Assembly (NCBI GenBank): GCA_043817345.1
Contig: JBDRGZ010000068.1
Span: 1-39,105, forward strand
Direction of reading: 5' to 3'
DNA: 39,105 bases
Source: Patescibacteria group bacterium
GTDB taxonomy: Bacteria; Patescibacteriota; Patescibacteriia; UBA2196
The position numbers and the translations under genes are program-made. The notes beneath the pieces were generated by a model. The model ran no database searches and had not been told where the DNA came from. It saw only the letters and a program-made list of their open reading frames with translations. This document shows, piece after piece, positions 31,104 through 31,289 of the stretch. Each line of letters opens with the position of its first letter. The first letter of the stretch is position 1.

Positions 31104-31289
31104 GCCGATGTAGCTCAGTTGGTAGACCTGCCCGCCATAGCTTGAGCCTATGTAGCTCAGTTGGTAGAGCGCATCCATGGTAAGGATGAAGTCTGCGGTT
31201 CAATTCCGCACATAGGCTAAGGCGATAGCAGGCGGGGCATTTGCATGGTAAGCAAAAGGTCTGCGGTTCAATTCCGCACATCGGCTCCA
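31104..31289 (+). tRNA. Outer tRNA-Thr(GGU), interrupted in the D-arm by a 110-nt insert
   Basis: 5' part 31104-31126: GCCGATG TA GCTC AGTTGGTA GA. 3' part 31237-31289: GC A TTTGC ATGGTAA GCAAA AGGTC TGCGG TTCAATT CCGCA CATCGGC T CCA. Joined, all stems are perfect. Confidence 0.6.
31146..31218 (+). tRNA. Inner tRNA-Thr(GGU)
   Basis: GCCTATG TA GCTC AGTTGGTA GAGC G CATCC ATGGTAA GGATG AAGTC TGCGG TTCAATT CCGCA CATAGGC T. Canonical cloverleaf; no encoded CCA. Confidence 0.9.

Follow-up and report, generated by a model that had tools for sequence, protein, structure and literature searches.

How does a complete tRNA gene come to lie within another tRNA gene of the same anticodon, and which of the two serves the cell? 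The question is raised by a locus in a stretch of 39 105 nt from a Patescibacteria group bacterium (GenBank assembly GCA_043817345.1, contig JBDRGZ010000068.1, positions 1 to 39 105 of the forward strand; this whole stretch is referred to as the window). At 31104-31289, a tRNA-Thr(GGU) gene (the outer or resident gene) is interrupted in its D-arm by 110 nt (31127-31236, E1), which consist of a second tRNA-Thr(GGU) gene (the inner gene) between GC-rich arms of 19 and 18 nt. Comparison with related genomes supports the reading of E1 as a small palindromic mobile element that would carry a replacement tRNA into its cognate tRNA gene. We found no description in the open literature of a complete tRNA gene nested in another bacterial tRNA gene.

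A first-pass annotation, made from the letters of the window alone, had described here a 76-nt outer cloverleaf with an encoded CCA, split around a second complete tRNA-Thr(GGU); its coordinates and sequences at 31104-31289 were recovered on re-reading the window. Joined together, the outer halves (31104-31126 and 31237-31289) are called by ARAGORN as a tRNA-Thr(GGU) of 76 nt that encodes CCA and is fully paired in the acceptor (7/7), D (4/4), anticodon (5/5) and T (5/5) stems, and the Rfam tRNA model gives 72.2 bits to an uninterrupted copy of the same sequence in a relative (L143, 10902-10974). The inner gene, too, was called by both ARAGORN and Rfam (Table 1). Compared by eye, inner and outer tRNA differ at 10 out of 73 positions; the differences that fall in stems (4:69, 27:43, 28:42 and 30:40) are all compensated, and there is no difference in the D-arm or the T-arm. 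We therefore take the two to be related but distinct genes without a recent duplication between them, which bears out the covariation argument of the first-pass annotation; a tandem duplication is ruled out by the 10 differences. tRNA finders list the inner gene only, so that both the replacement and the horizontal origin of the working tRNA would be missed in annotation.

The relatives show what the locus looks like without the 110 nt. The gene order TIM-FBA-TPR-[tRNAs]-L33 is kept in them, and the resident tRNA gene lies directly downstream of the TPR-protein gene. In one sister species (L001; FBA protein 96% identical to that of the window; tRNA stretch compared, 3278-3327) an unbroken outer tRNA comes after the TPR gene, separated from it by the same 8-nt spacer (...GGTAGAGCATTTGC...); window 31104-31126 equals, with no difference, the first 23 nt of this gene (from 3278) and of that in L143 (from 10902). 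Nine contigs of another sister species (group B, L143-L151) have a complete unbroken gene, 76/76 identical to the spliced outer gene of the window, and so identical in the 3' part as well (31237-31289), which has four substitutions in a third sister species (group A, below). The empty site that the first-pass annotation had proposed to look for is thus present in 10 contigs from two sister species (L001 and the nine of group B), and, as it is precise, the 110 nt at 31127-31236 are best described as an insertion. It sits at a single bond, between tRNA positions 23 and 24 in the 3' strand of the D-stem, with unambiguous boundaries, and there is no target-site duplication at E1 (GGTAGA/.../GCATTT versus GGTAGAGCATTT in the empty site). 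The inserted 110 bp have no open reading frame (ORF), and against Rfam (at the gathering threshold and at E<=1) the insert matched tRNA only, with no intron or ribozyme family. The ends of its arms are complementary (CCUGCC/GGCGGG, with one G.U), a pairing pointed out in the first reading and also seen in the predicted fold of the full 186 nt, which is made of nested helices (-79.3 kcal/mol, z = -4.55).

E1 is very probably a non-autonomous palindromic cassette that belongs to a lineage-specific family of GC-rich hairpins and has inserted in the resident tRNA-Thr(GGU) gene. We identified four distinct members of this family (E1-E4; Table 1) in ~254 kb of related DNA; the short forms are GC-rich and 36-41 bp long, in genomes of ~30% GC, and in 4/4 copies the inverted repeat CCYGCCCGC pairs with GCRGGCGGG. 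The arm motif CCYGCCCGC, with one mismatch allowed, occurs five times in the window versus 0.77 times expected, and 0/100 shuffles reach five. The likeness between the flanks of the inner tRNA and the palindrome E2, already noticed in the first reading, is borne out by alignment: the centre of E2 (TGAGC-AGCTA-GCGAT) is like E1 minus the tRNA interior (TGAGC[C...G]GCTAAGGCGAT). In E1 the complete tRNA-Thr(GGU) appears to occupy the place of the apical loop of the short forms, which would either be deletion derivatives, or else the tRNA would have been taken up at the apex; the sequences fit both.

The four members are found in four different contexts at unrelated sites, with different 5' flanks (TAGA, TTGG, GTTA and CTTA). 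The dnaK-DUF3467 spacer around E2 is wholly different in groups A and B. E3 and E4 are in a more distant relative (L123; FBA 76% identical in nucleotides), where E3 lies 2-4 nt from the D-arm position of E1; 27 nt downstream of E3 there is a complete tRNA-Thr(GGU) (4134-4206, 68.3 bits), followed by a degenerate 3' relic ending ...GACGGCTCCA and then a terminator. The AT-rich miniature inverted-repeat transposable element (MITE) that holds E4 (L123 2883-3080; window copy at 36558-36715) has inverted ends AAATTATTCTAATTAACCTAATT; its neighbours are the GH1 and EamA genes in the window, and FBA and TPR in L123. More distant relatives (L125, L131, L158 and L159) have an ordinary tRNA-Thr(GGU), or none, at the locus and no hairpins.

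Table 1. Positions of the parts of the nested tRNA locus and of the members of the hairpin family
Feature	Contig	Positions	Strand	Basis or context
Outer tRNA-Thr(GGU), 5' part	window	31104-31126	+	acceptor 5' strand, D-stem 5' strand, D-loop, G22 A23
E1, left arm, CCTGCCCGCCATAGCTTGA	window	31127-31145	+	missing from empty sites; aligns with left arms of E2, E3, E4; 100% identical in group A
Inner tRNA-Thr(GGU), without encoded CCA	window	31146-31218	+	ARAGORN; Rfam tRNA 67.5 bits
E1, right arm, AAGGCGATAGCAGGCGGG	window	31219-31236	+	pairs with left arm; aligns with right arms of E2-E4
Outer tRNA-Thr(GGU), 3' part	window	31237-31289	+	G24 C25, anticodon arm, variable region, T-arm, acceptor 3' strand, encoded CCA
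E2, 'empty' family member	window	11876-11916	+	in loop of hairpin CCGAACT (11855-11861)/AGTTCGG (11917-11923), then T-run, downstream of dnaK
E3	L123	4068-4106		D-loop of tRNA-like 5' relic, homologous locus
E4	L123	3009-3046		inside AT-rich MITE; window copy of the MITE (36558-36715) without E4

The family and the cassette can be put as sequence patterns (TAGCTCAGWTGGTN{1,3}YCYGCCCGC and GCCCGCCN{5,14}GCC...GTAGCTCAG). A scan of genome contigs with a degenerate anticodon-arm pattern gave, among the matches listed (at least 120 loci), none with the full inner tRNA or the arms; the anticodon arm of the inner tRNA is common to Firmicutes, Actinomycetota and Saccharibacteria, and the pattern is far too common. 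Four scans of viral contigs (hairpin in D-loop, arm plus tRNA, nested D-arms, and generic hairpin) returned nothing relevant, and there were no exact-protein matches to the window's own FBA and L33. Of the marks of known small elements, a GTAG 'foot' as in REP/RAYT elements is not common to the four copies, and a TA duplication as in Tc1/IS630 MITEs is possible for E3 alone. Elements of the IS200/IS605 type insert 3' of a fixed tetra- or pentanucleotide, make no duplication and have a separate sub-terminal hairpin at each end; the lack of a duplication fits this type, but the 5' flanks differ from copy to copy and the two ends pair with each other instead of forming separate hairpins.

The third sister species, group A (L133-L142, from separate ENA and Logan assemblies, among them ENA ERZ24794648-679; TPR protein 91% identical), has the same insert. 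The identical 110 nt stand at the same bond in at least seven contigs of group A, each from its own assembly, and the left junction can be seen in an eighth. Chimeras occur in metagenome assemblies, and partial tRNA duplicates near tRNA genes are common (e.g. in L029), so one might suspect an artefact or a trivial rearrangement: two strains assembled as one, a tandem duplication that was then cut by a deletion, or the duplicated att site of an integrase-borne island. Such an origin is exceedingly unlikely. The same junctions in at least seven independent assemblies argue against mis-assembly; the left-junction k-mers differ between the window (…GTTGGTAGACCTGCC…) and group A (…GTTTGTAGACCTGCC…), so that the window junctions were not borrowed from group A at normal k, which rules out an assembly chimera; and the 10 inner/outer differences, compensated in the stems, do not fit a recent duplication. 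Nor does the tRNA 3' part recur as a direct repeat, and a Pfam scan of 10 window ORFs matched no integrase; an att duplication or island was rejected for an insert of 110 bp that has neither ORF nor repeat, in clear contrast with L029.

The outer halves of group A differ from the genus consensus at five positions, and three out of these five changes hit conserved tRNA features: the D-loop is changed from AGTTGGTA to AGTTTGTA, with G18 lost (G18 to U), G39 to A leaves a C31.A39 mismatch, and U68 to A leaves an A5.A68 mismatch. The remaining pair, 29:41, has changed from U-A to G-C and is compensated. The window has no change in the 76 nt of its outer halves, versus five in group A. Judged by these changes, the outer gene is decaying in group A. 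The inner tRNA (31146-31218) is identical in the window and group A, and is the sole tRNA-Thr(GGU) called, by ARAGORN and by Rfam, in the 11.7-kb group A contig L133; we infer that it is the working gene there, beside an outer gene in decay. The outer copy of the window is most likely dead as well, while the cassette supplies the replacement.

The first-pass annotation had offered two readings of the locus. One, a palindromic mini-element that carried a tRNA into the D-arm and left the outer gene a recent pseudogene, agrees with the precise empty site, with the hairpin family at unrelated sites and with the damaged outer halves in a sister species. The other, a spliced or split outer tRNA, gained no positive support: that annotation had itself named damaged outer halves in relatives as a refuting sign, and they are found in group A (G18U, C31.A39 and A5.A68). 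In its full form the second reading is a functional nested gene, in which the inner tRNA would be released by RNase P/Z and the outer pieces, kept in contact through the acceptor stem and the GC arms, would be ligated or used as a two-piece tRNA, so that both tRNAs are made. It could draw on the outer halves of the window, which are perfect and identical to the functional gene of sister species, on the complementary arms and the nested helices of the 186 nt (z = -4.55), on flanks perfectly conserved between two species, and on the one compensatory change in the outer anticodon stem of group A. But the group A outer gene has no G18 and has two stem mismatches, the D-stem, in the tertiary core, is broken by the insertion in its 3' strand, a second tRNA of the same anticodon would be redundant, and the precise empty sites in closer relatives show a derived and dispensable state. 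We hold a functional nested gene to be very improbable.

Searches for a splicing signal point the same way. For a bulge-helix-bulge (BHB) motif (3-nt bulge, 4-bp helix, 3-nt bulge) placed over both junctions in all registers, the best candidate had 7/10 pairs (3/4 in the central helix), a score that 46% of random position pairs in the window equal. No splicing endonuclease (EndA) or RNA ligase was matched among the 10 window ORFs scanned against Pfam, and tRNA-splicing endonuclease is not known from bacteria. A BHB intron was accordingly rejected, as the motif is no better than chance and the outer halves are damaged in group A; so was a group I intron or other ribozyme, since the insert is 110 nt long, lies in the D-stem and gives tRNA alone in Rfam, whereas group I introns in bacterial tRNAs have a core of over about 200 nt with P3-P9 and are typically found in the anticodon loop. 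If the lineage of the window did still use the outer gene, to which we give very little credence, this would be a bacterial counterpart of the archaeal split and intron-containing tRNAs without a BHB endonuclease, and the conservation of halves and arms would reflect selection.

It remains to be asked whether the cassette entered this bond once or twice. The window, group A, group B and L001 are nearly equidistant (84-86% nucleotide identity in TPR, M50 and RRF), and in the non-coding DNA beside the tRNA the window and group A have 81-89% identity; in the insert they agree at 110/110 positions, with the nearest substitutions 6 nt outside each end. The chance of full identity over the 37 flank nt is 0.89^37 = 0.013 or 0.81^37 = 0.0004, and, as family members vary among themselves at arm positions (alignment of E1-E4), a strict constraint on those positions is unlikely. 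Identity of this degree within surroundings so diverged suggests that the cassette moved recently. We lean, by a modest measure, towards a recent and site-directed movement in which the cassette entered the same bond separately in the lineage of the window and in group A. Entry into the gene of the window would be very recent, the outer halves being unmutated, and entry into that of group A earlier, in view of the three damaging hits, perhaps after the G29:C41 variant had arisen in a still-functional gene. The cassette would be inserted by a trans-acting enzyme with a preference for the 3' edge of hairpin loops, the tRNA D-arm being one, and the independent landing of E3 in the same D-arm supports such a target preference. 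The lack of a duplication, together with this preference (D-arm, terminator loop), suggests a structure-directed insertion, possibly (and this is speculation) on single-stranded DNA.

Several points weigh against this reading of E1 as a recently and repeatedly mobile cassette. The number of distinct family members is low (four); there is no conserved target word across E1-E4; no target-site duplication is recognisable for E2 and E4, and for E3 only a possible TA; and we identified no integrase, transposase or homing endonuclease (a Pfam scan of 10 window ORFs matched no integrase). An orthologous AT-rich MITE (window 31373-31539; 81% identical) is common to the window and group A and absent in group B; the window and group A may on this account be sisters, in which case a single ancestral insertion needs fewer events. 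If there was a single ancestral insertion, the perfect outer halves of the window (0/76) and the perfect flanks would point to selection and not to recency, and the compensated 29:41 pair of group A can be read as past selection on the outer structure.

A single ancient insertion, in an ancestor of the window and group A and inherited vertically, is in our judgement rather unlikely, but it is the most serious competitor. The identity of the insert would then be due to purifying selection on the inner tRNA and the GC arms (e.g. as a stem for processing or stability), and the outer gene would be a pseudogene in both. The common MITE, which group B does not have, agrees with it; in TPR and TIM the window and group A are, by a narrow margin, closer to each other than any other pair; a single entry is simpler than two entries at one bond; and the five changes per 76 nt in group A are consistent with neutral decay from roughly the time of the split onwards. 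Against these stand the outer halves of the window, with 0/76 changes where ~4-7 are expected (P ~0.001-0.015, from the 81-89% non-coding identity), and the 37 flank nt, which are unchanged in both lineages although they vary among family members, so that a single ancestral insertion would need selection on both the arms and the outer halves of the window.

The MITE shared by the window and group A (~165 bp, ~31373-31539 in the window, with inverted ends AGACCCACTAAATAATAA / TTATTATTCAGTGGGTCT) lies between tRNA-Thr(GGU) and tRNA-Tyr. A further copy is at a different locus (L134 1482-1654, 84%), and a 46-nt relative of it is found in group A between the TPR stop codon and the outer tRNA.

The interrupted allele could also have arisen once and spread between the sister species by DNA uptake and homologous recombination in conserved flanks. 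The locus is a mosaic between sister species: the ProRS gene (window 25464-26879) is of archaeal type (471 a.a.) in the window and its closest relative, and of bacterial type (562 a.a., with an editing domain) at the same position in groups A and B, and the FBA gene of group A (window counterpart at 29322-30197) has 66% nucleotide identity to those of the other three, which share ~89%. Both the ProRS types and the FBA alleles would suit such an exchange, and interspecies transfer of GC clusters by homologous recombination is documented in yeast mitochondria (PMC4478555). Yet group A has substitutions 6 nt from either end of the insert that the window does not have, and its 46-nt element, about a dozen nt upstream of the tRNA, is missing from the window; a transferred tract would need both of its ends within 5 nt of the insert, or else an unsampled lineage as its donor. 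We consider transfer of the allele improbable.

How would the cell tolerate the insertion? The split gene would still be transcribed from the upstream signals of the resident gene, and RNase P, 3'-end processing and CCA addition (needed in this scheme because the inner gene does not encode CCA) would release the inner tRNA, which would take over the job of the gene that it interrupts, while the outer halves would be by-products and discarded. Promoter and terminator scanning of the surroundings was uninformative. As a supplier of the very tRNA that it destroys, the cassette would be tolerated; replacing what it breaks, it would be near neutral and could persist. Reduced genomes are generally thought to hold few tRNA gene copies, and by bringing a working copy of the gene destroyed, a selfish insertion could, quite simply, make itself tolerable to such a genome. 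With E1 and E3, the hairpin family has landed twice, independently, in the D-arm of a tRNA at this locus, and if re-insertion at the same bond in different species is true, E1 would be a minimal 110-bp site-directed gene-replacement element.

The GC hairpins of these AT-rich Patescibacteria resemble the mobile GC clusters of fungal mitochondria, and the closest analogues of the E1 family appear to be those of yeast (e.g. GC42; PMC4478555): both are short GC-rich palindromes (~30-45 bp) scattered in a very AT-rich genome, with presence/absence polymorphism, and both lie in spacers and occasionally in RNA or protein genes; the yeast clusters are transferred between species (PMC4478555), as the cassette would be. 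A passage of PMC2800124 cites the occurrence of such clusters in rRNA and var1, and hairpin elements have also been found inserted in the mitochondrial rRNA genes of sponges (PMC2800124). The yeast clusters differ from E1 in having a putative AG/TAG target duplication (none at E1), in carrying no gene (a tRNA in E1) and in being confined to an organelle (here, a free bacterial genome). In Neurospora mitochondria, GC-rich PstI palindromes reportedly flank tRNA genes (Yin, Heckman and RajBhandary, 1981, cited in PMC4478555). As here, GC palindromes would stand right beside tRNA genes in an AT-rich genome, with the tRNA clamped by complementary GC arms; but there the palindromes reportedly border a large number of tRNA and rRNA genes at their own sites, and a role as processing signals was discussed, whereas E1 is a single arm-tRNA-arm unit inserted in a tRNA gene. 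We saw no GC arms beside the other tRNA genes of the window in the stretches read.

Bacterial elements such as REP/BIME, Correia and the Rickettsia palindromic elements are small non-autonomous units with inverted repeats at their ends; they are moved by enzymes acting in trans and can be tolerated where they land in genes. The E1 family is like these MITE and REP elements in its size, its dependence, its inverted-repeat ends and its tolerated insertion in a gene; it is unlike them in its copy number (four in ~254 kb), in showing no duplication at E1 and no identified RAYT or transposase, and in a tRNA cargo that replaces the gene hit. In the disrupted tRNA genes of archaea, which have non-canonical BHB introns or are split or tri-split (PMC10714607, PMC4033280), the break is likewise at a non-anticodon position and GC-rich complementary sequences adjoin both parts, and the tRNA introns of Thermoproteales behave as transposable units (PMC10714607, PMC4033280). 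Unlike those, the present case is in a bacterium, has no BHB, shows an outer gene that decays in a sister species, and has an entire tRNA with identical specificity as its insert. Some integrative elements also enter a tRNA gene and keep the tRNA supplied, restoring the gene with a copy of its 3' part that they carry (L029 holds an ordinary example). They are kilobases long, encode an integrase, recombine at the 3' half and leave a direct repeat, whereas E1 has 110 bp, no enzyme, no repeat and a complete independent gene.

The window has 30% GC and encodes DnaK/DnaJ, TIM, a class-II aldolase, ProRS and L33; its closest protein homologues are from named Patescibacteria. Its tRNA-Tyr has the long arm (class II) typical of bacteria, which marks the host as bacterial, not archaeal. 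In group B, an NYN gene and a gene for a 1618-a.a. FGAR amidotransferase are found between tRNA-Thr(GGU) and L33, which makes the surroundings of the tRNA cluster an insertion hot spot. The window has a truncated NYN-domain ORF at 34927-35139 (+), with a counterpart in L143 (11271-11537).

Some features of the neighbourhood recur in other places. A motif like TGTGGATAA is found shortly downstream of tRNA genes or hairpins in several Patescibacteria (window 31297-31306 and 11943-11952; L115 ~6573; L123 ~4338), and may be a promoter or a processing signal. Another GC-richer inverted-repeat element (gtcattccgagga...tcctcaggatgac; L131 12010-12100 and 12510-12640; L158 4085-4160) flanks the tRNA/L33 cluster in distant relatives without tRNA-Thr(GGU) at the locus. 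In group B, a DUF3800-II RNA (Rfam RF02961, 71.5 bits) lies upstream of ProRS (L143 3531-3600, - strand).

Two further tRNA sequences of the window are unusual. One, a conserved class-I tRNA without a long variable arm (window 28441-28514, + strand; L133 5350-5423; L143 7822-7895), is labelled tRNA-Ser by ARAGORN; it has G3.U70 (the alanine identity element), the 7-nt anticodon loop CUUGACA with anticodon UGA (Ser codon UCA) and C37, and between species the pair 5:68 covaries while G3.U70 is kept. Going by these features, it may accept Ala and read a Ser codon, or else have a role outside translation. The other is a tRNA-like sequence at 12120-12207 (- strand) that was missed by ARAGORN and Rfam: it has an acceptor GGGGGUG/CACCUCC with G3.U70, an ACCA end, a good T-arm, an aberrant D region and the same loop CUUGACA as the tRNA at 28441-28514. 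It is in the 452-nt dnaK-DUF3467 spacer (57 nt in group A, and occupied by a different small gene in group B); at 12051, some 100 nt from it, CTTGACATCCTC recurs in inverted form.

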